The position numbers were made by a program, and so were the translations under genes. The notes under the pieces are model-generated. The model had not been told where the DNA came from. It made no database searches and saw only the letters and a list, made by a program, of their open reading frames with translations. DNA of 24,415 nucleotides from a virus. Taxonomy: Duplodnaviria; Caudoviricetes. Location: the IMG/VR virus record IMGVR_UViG_3300002092_000189, positions 1-24,415 of that record, one strand, 5' to 3'. Of this stretch, positions 1,177-19,236 are shown in pieces. Numbering within the stretch: position 1 is the stretch's first letter; every line of letters starts with the position of its first letter.

Positions 1177-1298
1177 TAGTTAATATCTTTACATACTCGA
1201 TCGTGTAATTTATAAAACAATGCATCAACTACACGAATTTTCCACCATATTGACCACCATTTATTATGGTTGTACATTTTGCATATCAATTTACTCAT
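1176..1298 (-). CDS. small Trp-rich protein (40 aa, MSKLICKMYNHNKWWSIWWK...), not in ORF track
   Basis: Strong AGAAAGGA RBS; its TAA overlaps the next ATG. Confidence 0.65.
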   Translation of the reverse strand: MSKLICKMYNHNKWWSIWWKIRVVDALFYKLHDRVCKDIN

Positions 1299-1324
1299 GG
1301 TATTCCTTTCTACTATCTATGTTC

Positions 1325-1756
1325 ATAGATAGTAAAAGACACACGATATTATTTGCTGAATACCGGAGGACTCAGCTCACAGGCCCTATTGCGTTGTGGA
1401 AGTCTATTAATAATGGGTGTTGCAACAACCACTATTAACTCCACGCTTACTATAAGAGGAATTTAGACCCCCCTGGGTATCTCAACCTTATAGTCCGTCC
1501 TGATCTTGCTTTTGCTGGTCCCTGTATTTACCTAAACTCAACTTAATACAGATTGCAGATCCAGTTGGCATAGCAAACCTATACCGCGTGCCTTTTACCA
1601 CCTATGCGGGCGATTGTTTATGTTGGAGCAGTTTAGCCTTGTCATACTCAGGACAGGTAACAGGTATACCCCGATGCTCACGGGCCGTGTTTTACCTCAG
1701 GTCTCGTCAGACCAACCATATTTTGTATCGCTGTACAAATTAATATGTGTTTACAA
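1325..1756 (-). ncRNA. candidate structured non-coding RNA
   Basis: No credible ORF; hairpins at 1396-1444, 1449-1494, 1515-1564 and 1700-1713; H-type pseudoknot at 1626-1657. Confidence 0.5.
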
Positions 1757-2044
1757 CTATGCTAGTAAGTTGTGGATGTCTTTCATTGGTATGATTTTAT
1801 CCACTGGGTCCGGCCAATTAATCCAACCTTCTGGTTGGTCTTGACCTTCTTCACGCCAAGGCAAGATACGTACAGCATAGGGAATATTTTCTAACCCTAC
1901 TTCTTGGTTGCCTTCACCATTTTTAAATGCTTTAAGCGTAGCATCATAGATTTCATCTATGCTATTGCCTGCTTCTACATCCATAATGACTTGTGTAGCA
2001 ACCATAAGAGCCACACGATGTGTGTAAGCTGTTTGCTGTGACAT
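1757..2044 (-). CDS. hypothetical protein (95 aa)
   Basis: AAAC repeats plus AGAAAGGAG RBS. Confidence 0.8.
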   Translation of the reverse strand: MSQQTAYTHRVALMVATQVIMDVEAGNSIDEIYDATLKAFKNGEGNQEVGLENIPYAVRILPWREEGQDQPEGWINWPDPVDKIIPMKDIHNLLA

Positions 2045-2079
2045 AGGTATTCTCCTTTCTTGTTTGTTTGTTTATGTAT

Positions 2080-2475
2080 GGTGTGCATGTTTTATAGACC
2101 ACATGCTCTGTGTCTGTTTTGATGCATACCGTCTCTATACAGTACTTAAACGTAGACAACATAGTGATGTACCCACGAAGTTACATCGAGTATGAAGGGT
2201 CCGGTCCAGGGGGTCGGATACATCTAGTAGCGACACCTATTTTCATAGGGTTAGCGTTCGAAGCCTTAGCACCTGCCATTCCTTTCCCATCTTTTCCTGC
2301 GAGTCTGTATGACTTGGGTTGTCTATACAACCCAGTAAGAATAGGCACGTGCCTCCTATTCTTACTGCATCATATAGATAAGTCGGGGGGAGCCTACCCT
2401 CACAGGCTCTAACCCCCGACCTATTTGCTTGGTGGATTCCGGCACCAAGCTCCCTCACTAAATACTAGTTAGTAT
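2080..2475 (-). ncRNA. candidate structured non-coding region (run of hairpins)
   Basis: Stems TGGGTTGT/ACAACCCA, CAGTAAGAATAGG/CCTATTCTTACTG, GTCGGGGG..GAGCCT/AGGCTC..CCCCCGAC, GCTTGGTG/CACCAAGC; strand inferred from context. Confidence 0.45.
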
Positions 2476-2478
2476 CTA

Positions 2479-2769
2479 TTATTTCTTTGGCCTACCATTT
2501 TCAAAGTCCCAGTTTTCAAACTCATCAACAATAGTTGTAATGTATGCCGCTAATTTTTTGGCATCTTCTAAACCAATGTCAAACATGCTAGTAATCATTC
2601 GGTCTTTAGGTTTACCTATTTCAATACGCAGACTAATAACAGGGCCTTTTTCATCTTCCCAATCACCATTAAACTCTAATAGTGTGGGTACGTGTTCTTC
2701 CCAAGGTATAAGATAAGCTTCCTTATCTTTTAAAGATACAGTTTGATTGCCCGATATCATTTTACCCAT
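2479..2769 (-). CDS. hypothetical protein (96 aa)
   Basis: ORF track; operon context. Confidence 0.7.
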   Translation of the reverse strand: MGKMISGNQTVSLKDKEAYLIPWEEHVPTLLEFNGDWEDEKGPVISLRIEIGKPKDRMITSMFDIGLEDAKKLAAYITTIVDEFENWDFENGRPKK

Positions 2770-2896
2770 TTTTTTGTTCCAATATTTTGCCTAGAAGGTT
2801 AAGCATTTCTAACTCAGCCTGTAAAACATTAAGCTTTGTTTGTATAACAACAAGACGTGCTTTTATATCTTTTAAACTTTCTATATCTTCAGGCAC
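2762..2896 (-). CDS. small coiled-coil protein (44 aa, GTG start), not in ORF track
   Basis: Hand translation MPEDIESLKDIKARLVVIQTKLNVLQAELEML...; AAGGAAG upstream; fills the gap. Confidence 0.55.
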   Translation of the reverse strand: MPEDIESLKDIKARLVVIQTKLNVLQAELEMLNLLGKILEQKNG

Positions 2897-3137
2897 TTTT
2901 CTTCCTTTCCATTTCATATGACATAAAGGATATATATCCTATGCCTTTGTATTCTTTGCCACCCCAAATGCCATACAGCCCCGGAGTAGTCTCAGCATAT
3001 GATTTACATGCTGAAAGCAATGGACAAGCCTTGCATATAGCAATGGCTAGTTTCTTATTTGGATCAGCCTTACCTGATGGGAAGAATATCTCCCGGTCAG
3101 TTTGAGCACACAACTGCGTGCCATTTAGAAAGTCCAT
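2889..3137 (-). CDS. whiB: WhiB-family Fe-S transcription regulator
   Basis: C..D.E.FFP...AIAICKACP...C...YGIWGG: four Cys plus the G[IV]WGG turn. Confidence 0.95.
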   Translation of the reverse strand: MDFLNGTQLCAQTDREIFFPSGKADPNKKLAIAICKACPLLSACKSYAETTPGLYGIWGGKEYKGIGYISFMSYEMERKKSA

Positions 3138-3239
3138 CTACTGTCTCCAATCTGAATCTTGTTGGTCGATTTGATACTGCTTATTGATTAGGTATGCAAC
3201 ACCAGCCATACCTATAATGAATAGACCTACGAATAACAC
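3138..3239 (-). CDS. small membrane protein (33 aa, GTG start), not in ORF track
   Basis: GAGGAG RBS; hydrophobic MLFVGLFIIGMAGVAYLI. Confidence 0.55.
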   Translation of the reverse strand: MLFVGLFIIGMAGVAYLINKQYQIDQQDSDWRQ

Positions 3240-3412
3240 ATCTCCTCCTCTCTCAGCAATTCAACTGCCAAACTTTCGGGGGATTTTTCGGGGGAACTTA
3301 CTGTGATTACACGCTTTGTGTAATGGGTATATGACATAGCCACAGTACAACCACAAGGCTTCTTAACAGTCACCTTTGTAGTTGTAGTAATGAACTCGAG
3401 GGTATTAGTCAT
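3227..3412 (-). CDS. hypothetical protein (61 aa)
   Basis: AAGGAGG/GAGG RBS. Confidence 0.65.
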   Translation of the reverse strand: MTNTLEFITTTTKVTVKKPCGCTVAMSYTHYTKRVITVSSPEKSPESLAVELLREEEMCYS

Positions 3413-3428
3413 ACCTCAACCTCCTTCT

Positions 3429-3505
3429 ACTCTCATAGAGAGTGGATAACACACAGGATTATCTTTACGCCAGCACTTGGCAACCTATATGTTATCCACA
3501 GCCTA
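3429..3505 (-). repeat. stem-loop repeat unit A (16-bp stem, 26-nt loop)
   Basis: Arms 3442-3457 and 3484-3499 pair 16/16 on the minus strand with 2 G-U; followed by ACUCUC-UAU-GAGAGU. Confidence 0.85.
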
Positions 3506-3539
3506 TGAAAACAAATAAAAAAAATCGGGGGGAACTGTT

Positions 3540-3797
3540 TTACCTACCAGAACTCTTACCATTCAATAAATCAGGAGAGTCAACAGATACATAGGTAAAA
3601 CCCTGCTTAGGCATAAGAATAAGACGATACCCAGAGCGAGCCTGACTAATGCCCTTGGATACACAATCTTTAGACATACAATAGGGATAACCAGCCTCAT
3701 ACCTCGCTTGAGGTACAGGCTGCTCACAATAGATACAACAAAGAGCGTTGTCTAAGGCTTCTAGACAAGGCTCTGAGTCACAACATTGGCATTTCAT
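3540..3797 (-). CDS. Cys-rich protein with DksA/TraR-like C4 zinc finger
   Basis: CIYCEQPVPQARYEAGYPYC...C resembles CxxCxxxIPxxRxxA..C..C; AGGAGG RBS. Confidence 0.65.
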   Translation of the reverse strand: MKCQCCDSEPCLEALDNALCCIYCEQPVPQARYEAGYPYCMSKDCVSKGISQARSGYRLILMPKQGFTYVSVDSPDLLNGKSSGR

Positions 3798-3814
3798 AAT
3801 GACCTCCTAGTTAT

Positions 3815-3932
3815 ACTCTCCAGATAGAGAGTGAGAGACACACAGGACATAGATTGATTACATAGACTTACTCATACTGTTGGCTGCAGCCTCAATGACG
3901 CAATAACCTGTGTGCCTTCCACTAACTACCTA
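3815..3932 (-). repeat. stem-loop repeat unit B (16-bp stem, 60-nt loop)
   Basis: Arms 3831-3846 and 3907-3922 pair 15/16 with 2 G-U; 5' AGGUAGUU, 3' CUCUC..GAGAG hairpin. Confidence 0.85.
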
Positions 3933-3933
3933 C

Positions 3934-4043
3934 CCTCTCTGATAGAGAGTGATAGATACATAGGCTGTTGAATATGGATGCTACATCTAATCGCAGAGCC
4001 ACATCACACTTTGGAGCACCTATGTACCTATCACAAACTACCT
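3934..4043 (-). repeat. stem-loop repeat unit C (16-bp stem, 54-nt loop)
   Basis: Arms 3949-3964 and 4019-4034 pair 16/16 with 1 G-U; same flanking motifs. Confidence 0.85.
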
Positions 4044-4049
4044 GATAAT

Positions 4050-4316
4050 AGATAAGCCACCAGCCTCCCAACCTGGTCTTACCGTTAGGTAAGCAATTCG
4101 GCTAGATAGCCAGTGGCTTATCTTGGACATAGTGGTACTAAGAATTCACTCTCCTGCTGGCATACCACAATTCCGCATCTCCAACTAGCCACCAGTCTAT
4201 TATTCCCTTACGGGTGCTGGTGCTGTGCGGGTATCGTGGCAATTACTGCCCCCGTCTATATCCACAGTAGAACTATGGACATAGATAGAGGCAGGGGACA
4301 CCGAAGTGCCCCCTGC
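4050..4316 (-). ncRNA. candidate structured RNA downstream of the 189-aa gene
   Basis: 11-bp stem 4050-4060/4113-4123; stem 4132-4168; long hairpin about 4247-4293; C(UUCG)G hairpin 4291-4316 with no U-tract. Confidence 0.65.
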
Positions 4317-4334
4317 TACTATTATAGAAACTAC

Positions 4335-4904
4335 CTACTTAGTAGATAGTTCCTTTTCACTCTCCTTAGGTGTTTCCACCTTGCCGAGATATTGTTCCTT
4401 TAACGCTTCGAAATCTGCTTGAAGCGTAAGAAACGAGGTGTCTGCCTTGGTAGTTTGTACCATAGGCACAGCACGAGCCTTCTTAACAGCCTTGTGAACT
4501 GCTTCGATGGCTTCGATAGTAGACACACCATTAAGGTTGTCTTCATCAGCCTGCTTCTTGTCTTCTTGCTCGACAAGTTTAGCGACACGCTTAAGTTCTG
4601 CTTCCATAGCAACAAGGTCTGCTAAGACCTTAATGCGGTGGTAGTTAGCGCCAAGGAACAGCGCATTAAGTGTGTCTACATCTATCTGAGGACATACAGA
4701 CTTGATGTAACCGCCGAACGCTTCACCCGCTTTAGTAGTTCCTTTCAGACCTACGGCAAGCGCGTGTGCGTGGGTAATAGCCTTGTCTGCGGAGAATACT
4801 TCCGCATACCTAGACATCCACGCAGAGGACGAGTTCATATGCTCATTAACGCAGGCGGTAAGACTAGCCTGTGATGATGCGCTTAGTTGAACTAGAGCAC
4901 TCAT
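4335..4904 (-). CDS. hypothetical helical protein (189 aa), first gene of the leftward arm
   Basis: AGAAAGG RBS; Ala/Lys/Glu-rich; no family recognised. Confidence 0.85.
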   Translation of the reverse strand: MSALVQLSASSQASLTACVNEHMNSSSAWMSRYAEVFSADKAITHAHALAVGLKGTTKAGEAFGGYIKSVCPQIDVDTLNALFLGANYHRIKVLADLVAMEAELKRVAKLVEQEDKKQADEDNLNGVSTIEAIEAVHKAVKKARAVPMVQTTKADTSFLTLQADFEALKEQYLGKVETPKESEKELSTK

Positions 4905-5005
4905 TTAGATACCTTTCTCGGGGACAGGACTTTCCTGCCACCGCCCCTACTATCTAGCCTTGCGACTAGATAGCAGGAACGAGAGCAGGAGAGTGAATTC
5001 CTTTC
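4905..5005 (-). promoter_or_regulatory. structured 5' leader of the 189-aa gene
   Basis: 14-bp GCAA-tetraloop hairpin 4946-4977; GGCAGG/CCUGUC hairpin; UCUCG/CGAGA closing stem overlapping the RBS. Confidence 0.65.
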
Positions 5006-5074
5006 CCTAGCGGACCGAGTATTACCCCTTCCGCTTCCGCGCCCCTTATGGTTACGCTTACCTATGTATTAATG

Positions 5075-5170
5075 CCCCCCACCCTTAACGCCCGCCGAGC
5101 CCCCAGATTGACGAGGCGAGACGAACTAGCAGCTCTGTGGCGGGATAGACAGTGGCCTAAAAGGTGGGGG
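5075..5170. repeat. GC-rich nested inverted repeat at the strand-divergence point
   Basis: CCCCCACC 5076-5083/GGTGGGGG 5163-5170; CCCGCC 5091-5096/GGCGGG 5139-5144; GAGC/GCTC. Confidence 0.6.
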
Positions 5171-5187
5171 TGTGATATTTTTCACAC
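5170..5187. promoter_or_regulatory. CRP/GlxR-type palindrome
   Basis: gTGTGA-tatttt-TCACAc, exact TGTGA-N6-TCACA consensus. Confidence 0.55.
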
Positions 5188-5261
5188 TTGGGTTAAATAA
5201 GGCAGTGGCTTGAACTATCTATGATCATAGTGTTGCTGGAGTAAAAATTGGCGGGTAGCTG

Positions 5262-5267
5262 TACAAT
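5262..5267 (+). promoter_or_regulatory. -10 element, leaderless transcript
   Basis: TACAAT 6 nt before ATG 5274, no RBS. Confidence 0.6.
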
Positions 5268-5273
5268 CACAGC

Positions 5274-5771
5274 ATGGCAAAAGATTTCATAGGTCACAAC
5301 ATAGGTCCAGATGAGGCTAACAAGAAGCTCAACATTGGTGCAGCTATGTATGGCTTTGCTGACCCTGCATTCCGTGATCAACAAGATGACCCATCGGAGG
5401 GTTACACCTCTGATCTATTTGGGGATGGGTGGGAACAGATGCCTGCTCCATCAACTGGTAAGCGGCGCAGAGCGCTATGGATTGGCTACCATCGGGGTAT
5501 GAAGATGCTGGTTATTATCTTTACAACCAAGACTAGTACAAAAACTAGAAAAACCGGTAAGCCTGCAGGAACAAGAGTGTTTTATGGAACAGTACAGCCA
5601 TGGTGGAAGTACGAAGATGTAGATTTAGAGATGTGGGAAGAGCTGGTTGGCTATCATTCAACTGGGGAATGGCTAAAGTTCTCTGGTGTTGAAAATGGAA
5701 ACTACTCTGCTACACGTAAAGAAGAATTAGATAACCTTACTCAAGACTACAAGAATTCTTTAAGATCTTAA
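5274..5771 (+). CDS. KTSC-domain protein
   Basis: RALWIGYH...LVIIF...YEDVDLEMWEELVGYHSTGEW matches the KTSC pattern (GY..L.v.F..Y.dV..e.yeel...S.G). Confidence 0.75.
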   Translation: MAKDFIGHNIGPDEANKKLNIGAAMYGFADPAFRDQQDDPSEGYTSDLFGDGWEQMPAPSTGKRRRALWIGYHRGMKMLVIIFTTKTSTKTRKTGKPAGTRVFYGTVQPWWKYEDVDLEMWEELVGYHSTGEWLKFSGVENGNYSATRKEELDNLTQDYKNSLRS

Positions 5772-6567: not shown

Positions 6568-7080
6568 ATGGCTAATATGCCCATGCCCGGAAACCCTAAA
6601 GACCCATTCAGAGATCGTTACCCAGATCCATGGTCTAAGGAATATCCAAAAATCACAAAACCAGAAGTTCTAACTATCACATCCCTCTTTCCTCAGTTTA
6701 ATCGCTGGGCAATCGGATTTGATCCAATGTTAGATACCTTCAAACAAGTAGCCGCAAATGCAAAGACTGCTGGTTATCCCCCATACAATATCTACAAGAG
6801 TAAGGACACATACGTCCTAGAACTGGCTGTAGCAGGCTTTGCTAAGGAAGATATCAAAATCTCCGTACAAGAGCTCACACTGACCGTAGAAGGCGAATTA
6901 GGGGTACCACAGGAGGAAGCTATCCATAAGGGAATTGCAACTAGAGACTTCAAACAAGACTTCGTATTAGCGGAGTATGTAGTTGTCAAGGGTGCAGAGC
7001 TCAAAGATGGATTGCTACGCATTACACTTCAGCAGGAACTTCCAGAAGAGAAGAAAGCAAAGATTATCGAAATCGCATAA
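6568..7080 (+). CDS. Hsp20/IbpA-like small heat-shock protein
   Basis: YPPYNI..LELAVAGF..HKGIATRDF..GAELKDGLL..IEI; TATAAT at about 6506 and AAGGAG RBS. Confidence 0.95.
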   Translation: MANMPMPGNPKDPFRDRYPDPWSKEYPKITKPEVLTITSLFPQFNRWAIGFDPMLDTFKQVAANAKTAGYPPYNIYKSKDTYVLELAVAGFAKEDIKISVQELTLTVEGELGVPQEEAIHKGIATRDFKQDFVLAEYVVVKGAELKDGLLRITLQQELPEEKKAKIIEIA

Positions 7081-7167: not shown

Positions 7168-7240
7168 TGACCTTTAGCTCAGCCGGCAGAGCGCTCGACT
7201 GTTAATCGAGTTGTCCCTGGTTCGATCCCAGGAAGGTCAG
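7168..7240 (+). tRNA. tRNA-Asn (GTT), CCA not encoded
   Basis: Acceptor TGACCTT/AAGGTCA; anticodon arm CTCGA-CTGTTAA-TCGAG; T-loop TTCGATC. Confidence 0.97.
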
Positions 7241-7288
7241 CAATCGTGTAGTTACACCAGTAGCTGCCCGCCGAAGATTTGGAAAGTT

Positions 7289-8113: not shown

Positions 8114-8680
8114 ATGACAACATTAGTAGCTATTCAAGGTGACGGTTGGTCTGTCATTGGGTGTGATAGTCGTGCATCTAGTGAAGATGGTCGTTATATG
8201 AACTTAGCAACCCCAAAGATTGTAGATAACAACGGAATACTTATTGCTGTATCTGGTGCCTCCCGTGGTGGAAATATTACACAATTTGGTTGGAAACCAC
8301 CAAAACCTCGCGTTAACGAAAATTTAGATTATTTTGTAACAAATAAGTTTATACCCCAAATGCGTGAGGCTTTTATTAAATCTGGTTATGATGCCAAAGA
8401 TGATGGCGATGCTGCCGGTCATGACTCAAGCCTTATAGTTTCTATACGCGGCGTTCTATACCCTATCTTTGAAGATTACTCGTGGGATCGTGAAGCCCGA
8501 AACATTTACTACGCAGGTAGTGGTGGAGATGTAGCTCTTGGTGCTTTAGAGGCTTTAGAGTATTCTAAGACTAAGACACCAGAGGTTGCCGAAAAAATTC
8601 TTCGTAAGGCTATAGAGATTGCCTGTAAACATGACATATATTCAGGTGGAAAAATCATTACACACATACAAACGGCGTAA
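8114..8680 (+). CDS. HslV/proteasome-beta-like Ntn protease
   Basis: M-TT N-terminus, IGCDSR, K33-equivalent (PKI), GSGG, D..SGG. Confidence 0.9.
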   Translation: MTTLVAIQGDGWSVIGCDSRASSEDGRYMNLATPKIVDNNGILIAVSGASRGGNITQFGWKPPKPRVNENLDYFVTNKFIPQMREAFIKSGYDAKDDGDAAGHDSSLIVSIRGVLYPIFEDYSWDREARNIYYAGSGGDVALGALEALEYSKTKTPEVAEKILRKAIEIACKHDIYSGGKIITHIQTA

Positions 8681-16680: not shown

Positions 16681-16906
16681 ACGTAGGAGTAAAACTGTAA
16701 AAGAATTAACTAAAGTTCAACGTCGGGTAAATTCTCTTCCTACACCAGAATTACTTACATGGACCGATCAAATTATGTATTCTATAGGCCGTAATTTATC
16801 TGCCTGGCAAAAAACTCAGTATAAAGATAATTTAGCAGAGGCACGTTTAGGGGCAGAATCTTTAAACGCCATTTTAGATACTTTAAGTGAAAGACATACT
16901 CTGTGA
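16667..16906 (+). CDS. small helical protein upstream of TerL
   Basis: GTGA overlap with TerL start; start adjusted. Confidence 0.7.
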   Translation: MRIFKRRSKTVKELTKVQRRVNSLPTPELLTWTDQIMYSIGRNLSAWQKTQYKDNLAEARLGAESLNAILDTLSERHTL

Positions 16907-19236
16907 CCAATATTGAGTTTGATGAGCTAGAACCAGAAGATTTTGATGAGTTTGGTAATGTATTATCCGAAGAAGTTGAAGATGATGGTTTAGACGAACT
17001 TTCTAAAGAATTTGTAAAAGTTCTTATAGAAAAAATTATGGACTTTATGAAAGTCCTTGTTGGTCACGAACTGCATCCTTATCAGCAACCTTTAGCTCGT
17101 AGACTTATTGAATCAGTGATTATTAACGATGGTGAAGAAATTACTGCTCTTGCCTCTCGTCAGTCAGGTAAATCAGAAACTATTGCCAATACAGTAGCAA
17201 CCCTTATGATTATTCTTCCACGCCTAGCTAAGATGTATCCAGAGCTATTGGGTAAATTTGGTGACGGAATTATGGTGGGAATGTTTGCCCCAGTTCAGTC
17301 ACAGGTAGAAACCCTCTATTCTCGTACAGTATCTCGTTTAACTAGTGAATTTGCTCTAGATGTACTTGGTGATCCTGAAATTGACGATATGGTCTCTAAA
17401 ACTCCTGGAGTAGTAAGAAATATCCGCCTTAAAAATTCTGGCTCATCTCTTATGATGATGACAGCAAACCCACGAGCCAAAATTGAATCTAAGTCCTTTC
17501 ACCTCATAATTATTGATGAGTGTCAAGAGGCTGACGATTTTGTGGTTGCTAAATCAATTTCACCTATGGGCGCATACTACAACGCCACTATGGTTAAAAC
17601 AGGTACTCCGACTACACATAAAAACAACTTTTATAAAGCTATCCAATTTAATAGACGTAGGCAGACTAGCCGCAACGCAAAGCAAAACCATTTTCAATGG
17701 GATTGGAAAGATGTTGCAAAAGTAAACCCTAACTATGAAAAGTTTATTAAAAAGGAAATGCTGCGCATTAGTGAGGACTCCGATGAGTTCCAGCTGTCGT
17801 ACAACTGCCTTACTCCAGACACTAAAGTACTTACTAAAGACTTGCGTTATGTAGAAATAGGCTCAGTACAGGTAGGGGATGTTTTAGTAGGGTTTGATGA
17901 GGAGTCTCCTACAAAGGGGGCGCACAGAAAGATACGTGAAACTACGGTAACTAAGGCAGAGCGGATCCTTCGTCCTACCTACGAGATTGCGTTATCTGAT
18001 GGAACTGTAGTTAAAGCTTCGGATGGACACTTATGGCTAGTATCAACAGCGGGTCGCCGCACTGTGTGGAAGCGCACAGATGAGCTAGCTTCTACCGACC
18101 GCATCTTCAAGATATTTGATAAATGGGATCATATTGAGGACTATCGTACGGGGTACTTAGCCGCAGCTTTTGACGGCGAAGGTCATTTTTCTAGGCAAGC
18201 AATGCTTGGGTTCTCTCAACGTGATAACGTAATGCTGAAAAAGGTAAGAAAGTATTTAGACGAACTAGGGTTTAATTACTGGGAGCGCCACGAAACAGGA
18301 ACCAATAATGATGTAACTGTACTTCACATTGCTGGCGGTCGAGCAAGCATGTCTCGATTTTTAGGGCAAATTCGCCCTGAGCGGTTACTTCAAAAGGTTA
18401 ACCTTAATTCTTTTGGCTCTATCGGTCGCCATGACTTTGTGGGTCAAGACTTTGAGCACCCGTTAGTGCTATCAGTAGAGTCTGTTGGAGAGAGGGAAGT
18501 TGTTGCCCTTGAGACTACAACTCAAACCTTTATTGCAGAAGGTCTTGCCTCTCATAACTGCAAATGGCTTCTTGAACGAGGAATGTTCGTTACATCTAAT
18601 ATTATGGAAGATCTCGGGGATACTTCCCAAGAGATTGTTAAATCATGGCATAGATCCCCAGTAGTAGTTGGAATTGATCCAGCTCGTAAAATGGACTCAA
18701 CAGTTGTCACAGTAGTGTGGGTAGACTGGGACCGTCCAGATGAATATGGTTATTATGATCATAGAGTATTAAATTGGCTTGAAATGCAGGGTGATGACTG
18801 GGAAGAACAGTATTTTCAAATTCAACAGTTCCTTTCAGCATACGATGTGCTTGCTATAGGAATTGACGCCAATGGTGTTGGTGATGCAGTGGCCGGAAGA
18901 TTAAAAGTATTGATGCCTCGTGCAGAAGTTATTCCGGTTACATCTAGCCCTACTGAGCAGTCTAAACGGTGGAAACACTTACAGGCATTGATACAGCGCC
19001 AGATGGTCTCATGGCCTTCCCATGCTAAGACTCGTCGTTTACGTATTTGGAAAAAGTTTTACCAGCAAATGACGGATGCTGAAGTTCAGTACAAAGGCCC
19101 TAACTTTTTAGTAGCTGCTCCAGATGAGGTACACGCCCATGATGACTTTGTAGACTCATTGTCTTTGGCATGTTCCCTAACACAAGAACTAGTTATGCCG
19201 ACAATTGAAGTTTCTGCAAGTCCCTTTTTCACGTAG
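16903..19236 (+). CDS. terL: terminase large subunit containing an intein
   Basis: Walker A SRQSGKSE; Walker B LIIIDE; TGTP; nuclease VGIDPA and HDDFVDS. Confidence 0.95.
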   Translation: MTNIEFDELEPEDFDEFGNVLSEEVEDDGLDELSKEFVKVLIEKIMDFMKVLVGHELHPYQQPLARRLIESVIINDGEEITALASRQSGKSETIANTVATLMIILPRLAKMYPELLGKFGDGIMVGMFAPVQSQVETLYSRTVSRLTSEFALDVLGDPEIDDMVSKTPGVVRNIRLKNSGSSLMMMTANPRAKIESKSFHLIIIDECQEADDFVVAKSISPMGAYYNATMVKTGTPTTHKNNFYKAIQFNRRRQTSRNAKQNHFQWDWKDVAKVNPNYEKFIKKEMLRISEDSDEFQLSYNCLTPDTKVLTKDLRYVEIGSVQVGDVLVGFDEESPTKGAHRKIRETTVTKAERILRPTYEIALSDGTVVKASDGHLWLVSTAGRRTVWKRTDELASTDRIFKIFDKWDHIEDYRTGYLAAAFDGEGHFSRQAMLGFSQRDNVMLKKVRKYLDELGFNYWERHETGTNNDVTVLHIAGGRASMSRFLGQIRPERLLQKVNLNSFGSIGRHDFVGQDFEHPLVLSVESVGEREVVALETTTQTFIAEGLASHNCKWLLERGMFVTSNIMEDLGDTSQEIVKSWHRSPVVVGIDPARKMDSTVVTVVWVDWDRPDEYGYYDHRVLNWLEMQGDDWEEQYFQIQQFLSAYDVLAIGIDANGVGDAVAGRLKVLMPRAEVIPVTSSPTEQSKRWKHLQALIQRQMVSWPSHAKTRRLRIWKKFYQQMTDAEVQYKGPNFLVAAPDEVHAHDDFVDSLSLACSLTQELVMPTIEVSASPFFT
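17806..18558 (+). mobile_element. intein (251 aa) with a single LAGLIDADG-like domain
   Basis: N|CLTPDTKV; block B ASDGHLW; YLAAAFDGEG; FIAEGLASHN|C. Confidence 0.95.

Follow-up and report, generated by a model that had tools for sequence, protein, structure and literature searches.

Conserved phage RNA cassettes with exchangeable inserts, best read as RNase III processing sites

Introduction

The early RNA of phage T7 contains five RNase III signals (PMC3867540), and signals of the R1.1 type offer the closest described counterpart to the elements reported here. They are irregular hairpins that are repeated between early genes, that combine an internal loop with an upper stem of 11 bp or more, and that rely on the enzyme of the host (PMC1540722, PMC3867540). 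The E. coli enzyme needs a helix of 11 bp and a 4-bp proximal box abutting the scissile bond, for which G-C, A-U/U-A, A-U and A-U/U-A are the optimal pairs; minimal substrates derived from R1.1 close in a tetraloop (PMC1540722). The RNase III of Aquifex prefers A-U, G-C and A-U at box positions 2-4 (PMC3074117), and that of B. subtilis is described as cutting stems that are closed over long distances (bioRxiv 2023.03.12.532304).

Two further phage systems bear on the present locus. UG27 arrays consist of structured units in which conserved motifs surround variable sequence and which are gained and lost between relatives; these units share one fold and a length of ~135-167 nt (bioRxiv 10.64898/2026.09.22.753630). 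The PeSL elements of T4-type phages are repeated before small variable early genes and are likely recombination linkers, every PeSL carrying a sigma-70 promoter and a terminator (PMC2839356).

Here we describe units in which a constant stem scaffold encloses a variable insert, the cargo. They were found in a virus record of 24,415 bases, a fragment of a larger phage genome, and this whole stretch is called the window throughout. The units share with the T7 signals their place between genes that are presumed early, the irregular hairpin with its internal loop and long upper stem, pairs that resemble a proximal box, and a predicted reliance on the host enzyme. They differ in that inserts of 23-237 nt, falling into 32 clusters, take the place of the tetraloop, that these inserts are exchanged between positions and phages, that some tandem units occur without genes, and that a covarying alternative hairpin on the 3' side would cap the downstream piece. 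Conserved motifs around variable sequence, and the gain and loss of units, are shared with UG27, but the cargos vary in fold as well as in length, and they mostly lead genes.

The initial annotation of this DNA, made from the sequence alone, had read three such units as a processed small-RNA array and had set them apart from CRISPR. CRISPR arrays consist of direct repeats and unique spacers of near-constant length, whereas the hallmarks of TIGR-Tas systems are a Nop-domain protein and box C/D motifs in dual repeats. Both systems, like our units, place variable sequence between constant flanks; our units nevertheless differ in their inverted arms, in inserts that range from 5 nt or less to 237 nt, in recurring insert families, and in the lack of matches above chance in the sequences searched. 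The inverted arms uphold the view that this is not a CRISPR locus, and Cas1, the cas gene looked for, is absent from all five complete relatives.

Materials and Methods

Loci were collected by way of the neighbouring 85-aa gene described below, from an upstream motif, from scaffold patterns and from the genomes of four relatives. Two scans with scaffold patterns yielded a full unit in 27 of 47 and in 22 of 119 loci. Arms were chosen by a profile score together with Watson-Crick pairs only, so that G-U pairs received no credit. Once 58 antisense readings had been discarded, 75 units were left; six more, being antisense chimeras or false pairings, were removed by eye, which gave the 69 distinct units analyzed here. 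Divergent scaffolds are excluded from these 69.

Results

Units in the window

The window encodes WhiB, Hsp20, a proteasome-type subunit, terminase, portal and major capsid proteins. Its major capsid protein is 69-72% identical to those of the Streptomyces phages Alone3, LuckySocke and BRock. Five complete relatives have genomes of 99-102 kb, and one of them carries genes for a contractile tail, DNA polymerase A and RecA. The metagenome runs that contain the stretch are from freshwater or lakes, three of them possibly its source, and in one run from a fourth study 29 of 30 bins were covered. An actinobacterial host is inferred because a WhiB-family gene is present, and we consider this probably a freshwater phage of an actinobacterium. 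Genome contigs searched with the phage Hsp20 gave 13 distant loci, not one of which carried an actinobacterial label; blastn of positions 1200-5300 against cultured phages gave no match, and no copy of the scaffold occurs in the 64 kb examined of Streptomyces phage Alone3 (116 kb). Elsewhere in the window, the gene for the terminase large subunit (16903-19236, plus strand) is split by an intein-like segment carrying a LAGLIDADG domain, which the 525-aa homolog of the relative G001 does not contain.

Each unit comprises a lower stem, a small internal loop, an upper stem formed by two 16-nt arms that enclose the cargo, and a mini-hairpin at the 3' end. The units belong to a leftward run of small genes that, judging from gene content, is presumed to be early. 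The features are as follows.

1312..1610, minus strand: unit D; arms 1598-1583 and 1347-1332, mini-hairpin 1333-1312, start codon at 1298
2889..3137, minus strand: WhiB-family gene, part of the leftward gene run that holds the units
3227..3412, minus strand: 61-aa ORF led by unit A; in relatives the same scaffold, with other cargo, leads its homologs
3429..3511, minus strand: unit A; lower stem, arms 3499-3484 and 3457-3442, mini-hairpin 3443-3429
3483-3458, minus strand: cargo of unit A, 26 nt, a 5-bp hairpin with a 10-nt unpaired tail
3797-3540, minus strand: 85-aa Cys-rich ORF led by unit C, ribosome-binding site 3808-3802; homologs at 15 related loci
3815..3931, minus strand: unit C; 5' strand of the lower stem, arms 3922-3907 and 3846-3831, mini-hairpin 3832-3815; variants of the unit in lake contigs
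3906-3847, minus strand: cargo of unit C, 60 nt
3932..4045, minus strand: unit B; 5' strand of the lower stem ~4045-4038, arms 4034-4019 and 3964-3949, mini-hairpin 3950-3932
4018-3965, minus strand: cargo of unit B, 54 nt, with a homolog in locus L192 (86% over 105 nt)
4041..4120, minus strand: three-part motif GGCYACT ... ACCAGGT-N20-TRTTATCAGG, single copy, abutting unit B
6568-7080, 7168-7241 and 8114-8680, plus strand: Hsp20 gene, tRNA-Asn(GTT) and proteasome/HslV-type subunit gene

The three minus-strand units with loops of 26, 60 and 54 nt that had been described between 3429 and 4043 were recovered at these coordinates, and 20 mononucleotide shuffles of the window contained no full unit. 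The 3' halves of units A, B and C constitute the repeat family D6, and unit C follows directly downstream of unit B. Unit D (1598-1332), with a structured insert of 235 nt, is a fourth unit that the earlier description lacked. In units A-C, an AGGUAG segment forms the 5' strand of the lower stem and pairs with a CUAU segment behind the second arm; an internal loop of 2-3 nt separates this stem from the 16-bp upper stem, so that each unit forms an irregular helix of ~26 bp. The 48 arm pairs of the three units include 42 Watson-Crick pairs, five G-U pairs and one A-C. On the minus strand each of the three folds 10-13 kcal/mol lower than its own plus strand, with z-scores of -6.7 for A, -4.3 for B and a marginal -1.8 for C. 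Units A, C and D each lie 29-33 nt upstream of a start codon that is provided with a ribosome-binding site. The 85-aa ORF behind unit C matched no Pfam or PHROG family.

The scaffold family in related phages

The 69 units share the lower stem, the small internal loop, the 16-bp upper stem, in which an A-C mismatch is fixed, and the 3' mini-hairpin. Among 55 distinct arm pairs, 97.3% of the cells are paired, against 84.0% (at most 86.4%) in 500 partner swaps, and 15 of the 16 stem positions show changes on both sides. Stem position 5 is A-C in 38 of 56 cases; outside this position, 71 G-U pairs stand against 12 A-C. An excess of this kind suggests that the coding strand acts in single-stranded form, RNA being the simplest candidate, and the claim that the arms vary while pairing is kept, with G-U pairs on the minus strand, was thereby confirmed on a larger set. 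Lake contigs likewise contain three changes in an arm of unit C that retain pairing.

A start codon was found for 60 of the 69 units, always on the strand of the unit itself, and 47 units lie 27-36 nt upstream of it. For six of the 69 the next element is another unit (two 'O8' ORFs that overlap the next unit being ignored in this tally), which agrees with the earlier view that the units are not only gene leaders. The four relatives examined have true units in one cluster only, with one or two canonical copies per genome.

The covariance models of Rfam 15 returned only tRNAs at the gathering threshold, apart from weak scores for miRNA hairpins (E 0.17-0.42), so that the presumed novelty of the family stands with respect to Rfam. 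Possible resemblances to the L10 leader, ToxI, CIRCE, sarcin-ricin/loop E, the Y RNA stem, the hammerhead or a group I intron found no support, since even at E 10 no such Rfam family was placed on the units. Among the papers listed by literature searches, none appeared to describe the scaffold family, and six supplementary files of the structured-RNA catalogue PMC10690425 contained none of four scaffold motifs or two sample identifiers. As judged by these comparisons, the units are a real, conserved and uncatalogued family of RNA cassettes.

Two exclusive pairings on the 3' side

At least six of the seven pairs of the lower stem are formed in 49 of 58 flank pairs, with some G-C/C-G swaps, and pairing is modestly above that of swapped partners (6.2 vs 5.6 of 7). 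In 64 of the 69 units the mini-hairpin begins within the final CAC, at its A (46) or C (18); usually it precedes a ribosome-binding site. Compensatory variants occur among its 20 distinct versions, a set drawn from 52 of 63 candidates by a filter that credits both G-U pairs and the mini-hairpin itself. In the tandem arrays of loci L074, L083, L103 and L048, the junction between units is itself a mini-hairpin; the divergent scaffolds L302, L304 and L305 lack it.

The mini-hairpin and the lower stem draw on identical 3' bases, and the two pairings exclude each other. That both are kept would be expected if cleavage close to the upper stem's base released the 3' strand for refolding.

An A/C-rich stretch, CCAACAYAAACA, recurs beside units in L007, L066 and L074 and at ~1625-1608 of the window, often between the mini-hairpin and the ribosome-binding site.

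Fit to RNase III

Beside the predicted cut, the helix of a unit comprises the 16-bp upper stem, the internal loop and a lower stem of at least 7 bp, and thus exceeds the 11 bp that the E. coli enzyme needs. At stem positions 7, 6, 5 and 4, respectively, 49 of the 55 distinct arm pairs have G-C, 44 have A-U/U-A, 37 have A-C and 28 have A-U. This is close to the optimum of the E. coli proximal box and is suggestive at most, the register having been picked post hoc among several. The Aquifex preference fits stem positions 8, 7 and 6; the rules compared are those of E. coli and Aquifex and are perhaps not those of actinobacteria. The distal-box preference is not clearly present in the scaffold stems.

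With an overhang of 2 nt, the 3' cut would fall either directly behind the A of CAC or directly in front of this triplet. These predicted cuts would lie one base to either side of the start of the mini-hairpin, neither of them exactly on its first base. Large inserts should be no obstacle, given the cutting of stems closed over long distances by the B. subtilis enzyme. No RNase III gene was found in any of the five complete relatives, so that the enzyme would have to be that of the host.

Cargo diversity and conservation

Five of the 69 units are empty, with a loop of at most 5 nt, which indicates that cargo is dispensable. The 64 non-empty inserts, of 23-237 nt, fall into 32 clusters, including 18 singletons. 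Ten cargo clusters occur in front of homologs of the 85-aa gene, one cargo family is found upstream of six different genes, and the gene of unit A has three different cargos in three phages. Loops thus turn over between relatives on a constant scaffold, as had been anticipated. The further statement that the loops are unrelated remains true within this genome but fails across phages, because there they recur as families.

Loose ends at the arms of unit B in lake contigs run on into another cargo family, although such short matches may come from more distant relatives. Between close strains, units are gained and lost beside small variable genes. The decoupling of cargo from gene and the loss of units may reflect a shuffling of the PeSL kind; in contrast to PeSL, a consensus scan of the sigma-70 type found neither promoter nor terminator at the units, and the promoter-like motif upstream is single-copy.

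All eight aligned copies of the cargo of unit A are 26 nt long. The inner hairpin is 100% paired, one position showing four pair types, and none of 500 shuffles reached its covariation score. Unpaired positions are identical in 72 of 80 cases (90%), as opposed to 153 of 316 (48%) at four-fold sites of the same five phage pairs, a difference inflated by the recruitment of members through similarity. A cargo A pattern that does not demand pairing matched eight loci in IMG/VR, all of them between complementary arms and two of them on new contigs. From these alignments, cargo A is under selection, as an insert family conserved with compensatory changes.

Conservation takes other forms in other inserts. 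The cargo of unit D has eight distinct aligned versions with invariant blocks, some cargos have conserved internal loops, and several families consist of a hairpin with a conserved unpaired tail of 10-20 nt. In a second cargo family, pairing is also 100%, and its covariation is not above that of shuffles (96/500). The pattern of the F1 cargo matched 39 IMG/VR loci, nine inside a scaffold and 30 unrelated and chance-like.

Neighbouring elements

The three-part motif next to unit B keeps a fixed spacing (39-41 nt, then 20 nt) in four of the five complete relatives and may be a promoter-like or terminus-related DNA site. A similar motif occurs in two otherwise unlike loci, L036 and L044, and its last part is found ~300 nt from the right end of Alone3.

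Positions 1716-1626 (minus), which immediately precede unit D, hold a conserved non-coding, RNA-like element that was aligned in 15 loci. It has one or two hairpin modules, the loops of which can pair with a segment behind a TAAA linker in the manner of a pseudoknot; it adjoins a tRNA in L002 and L004 and has no Rfam match. Long hairpins free of the scaffold occur on the minus strand at 4920-5000 (z -8.0), 4240-4345 (z -8.5), 2310-2390 (z -5.8) and 4124-4050, and all four regions are conserved in relatives. Three loci (L033, L039 and L041) carry a 201-nt insert with a different, perfect 14-bp stem and no mini-hairpin, at most 3 kb from the upstream motif; this is possibly another large RNA.

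Discussion

The scaffold and its covariation, the strand bias, the position before genes, the two exclusive pairings and the exchange of cargo are results of sequence comparison, and on this basis the units are best read as phage RNase III processing sites with exchangeable RNA cargo, at least part of which is selected. RNase III sites had earlier been offered as a simpler alternative to a small-RNA array. Since most units stand 27-36 nt before a start codon and some carry no cargo, such sites are probably the mechanism of the scaffold itself, and do not compete with it. We assign a probability of about 0.5 to the full account, in which host RNase III sites release inserts as small RNAs and let the downstream 5' end refold, and in which the conserved cargos serve as decoys in trans.

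According to this account, the units would be transcribed within one early polycistronic RNA. Host RNase III would cut at the base of the 16-bp stem, at most 1 nt from the first base of the mini-hairpin, and each insert would be released as a small RNA closed by its stem. The downstream piece would refold so that a mini-hairpin caps its 5' end immediately ahead of the ribosome-binding site, this hairpin would protect the mRNA, and cargo would be swapped by recombination between near-identical arms. Conserved cargos may then act in trans as decoys of host RNA-binding proteins, in which a paired support presents a short unpaired motif. The plan that recurs, in which a support covaries and a short unpaired motif is conserved, suits protein binding better than guiding, and this is what leads to decoys; the decoy step is nonetheless the weakest part of the explanation, and our confidence in it is low.

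The strongest competitor, which we regard as unlikely, supposes plain sites of the T7 type that mature the downstream mRNAs only, the apical loop being a functionless safe harbour for recombining inserts. It accounts well for the 47 of 69 units before start codons, for the five empty units and for the 18 singleton clusters, as well as for the weak average folding of the cargos, the median z of which is -0.7 (38% below -1 and 6% below -2, n=63); those of B (z -0.4) and C (z +0.8), folded alone, do no better than chance. The conservation of cargo A with compensatory changes is harder to reconcile with a functionless loop, as are tandem units with no gene between them and the retention of a 235-nt cargo in eight distinct versions with invariant blocks.

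The small-RNA array had been proposed to carry guide or antisense sequence, and of that proposal the constant scaffold with variable cargo is borne out. Excised cargos acting as guide or antisense RNAs against transcripts of the host or of rival phages now seem improbable to us, in spite of the families in which a hairpin bears a conserved 10-20 nt unpaired tail, and of one lake contig in which the 5' arm of unit B is followed by 28 other letters and then by the last 31 nt of cargo C with three changes, a 3' part retained behind a different 5' part (with the reservation, again, that short matches may come from more distant relatives). Against four relatives and the window, the longest exact matches of 54 cargos average 12.2, compared with 12.1 in shuffles, and the patterns of cargos B and C have no match in IMG/VR. 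Cargo lengths, moreover, vary, and none of the effector families tested is present. Among the five complete relatives, the Nop domain (PF01798), the TROVE domain of Y RNA/Ro60 systems (PF05731) and reverse transcriptase (PF00078; the window itself is a 24-kb fragment) are all absent, although the distant relative Alone3 has an annotated TROVE-domain gene. Judged by these partner genes, the units are not a TIGR-Tas, Ro60, UG27 or retron system.

Somewhat more doubtful still is a role of the cargo in cis, as a sensor (an aptamer or protein-binding site) that tunes the cleavage of its own stem and through it the expression of the next gene. The two exclusive folds of the scaffold do adjoin the ribosome-binding site, and some cargos do conserve internal loops. 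Neither cargo nor downstream gene, however, is tied to the other, the predicted cut is separated from the cargo by the 16-bp stem as an insulator, and tandem units lead no gene.

We can largely set aside elements acting as DNA (attC-like sites, miniature inverted-repeat cassettes or PeSL-like linkers, with a strand bias that stems from hairpins of single-stranded DNA), for although units adjoin small variable genes, are gained and lost between close strains, and G-T pairs can be tolerated on one strand of single-stranded DNA too, the five complete relatives have no integron-type tyrosine integrase (PF00589), the 100 longer ORFs of one relative include no transposase, the start codons of 60 of 69 units lie on the strand of the unit, there is one cluster per genome, and the cargos themselves covary as structures.

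Returning to processing sites with exchangeable cargo, a bolder extension is that these phages use host RNase III as an excision tool comparable to Drosha, so that one stem would deliver, at the start of infection, dozens of RNA decoys traded among phages against RNA-binding proteins of host defence or regulation. We put this forward tentatively, and would not bet on it. Phage early regions have been mined for small anti-host proteins; if the present reading is right, they also hold a shuffled repertoire of small RNAs. The scaffold would then mark the exact ends of ~30 candidate RNA families in lake phages, the hosts of which are probably actinobacteria, and each family could be synthesized and tested directly in pull-downs. 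On the plain reading, too, the units provide a natural set of 55 variants of a processing site with a refolding cap, which may be informative on the rules that actinobacterial RNase III follows.
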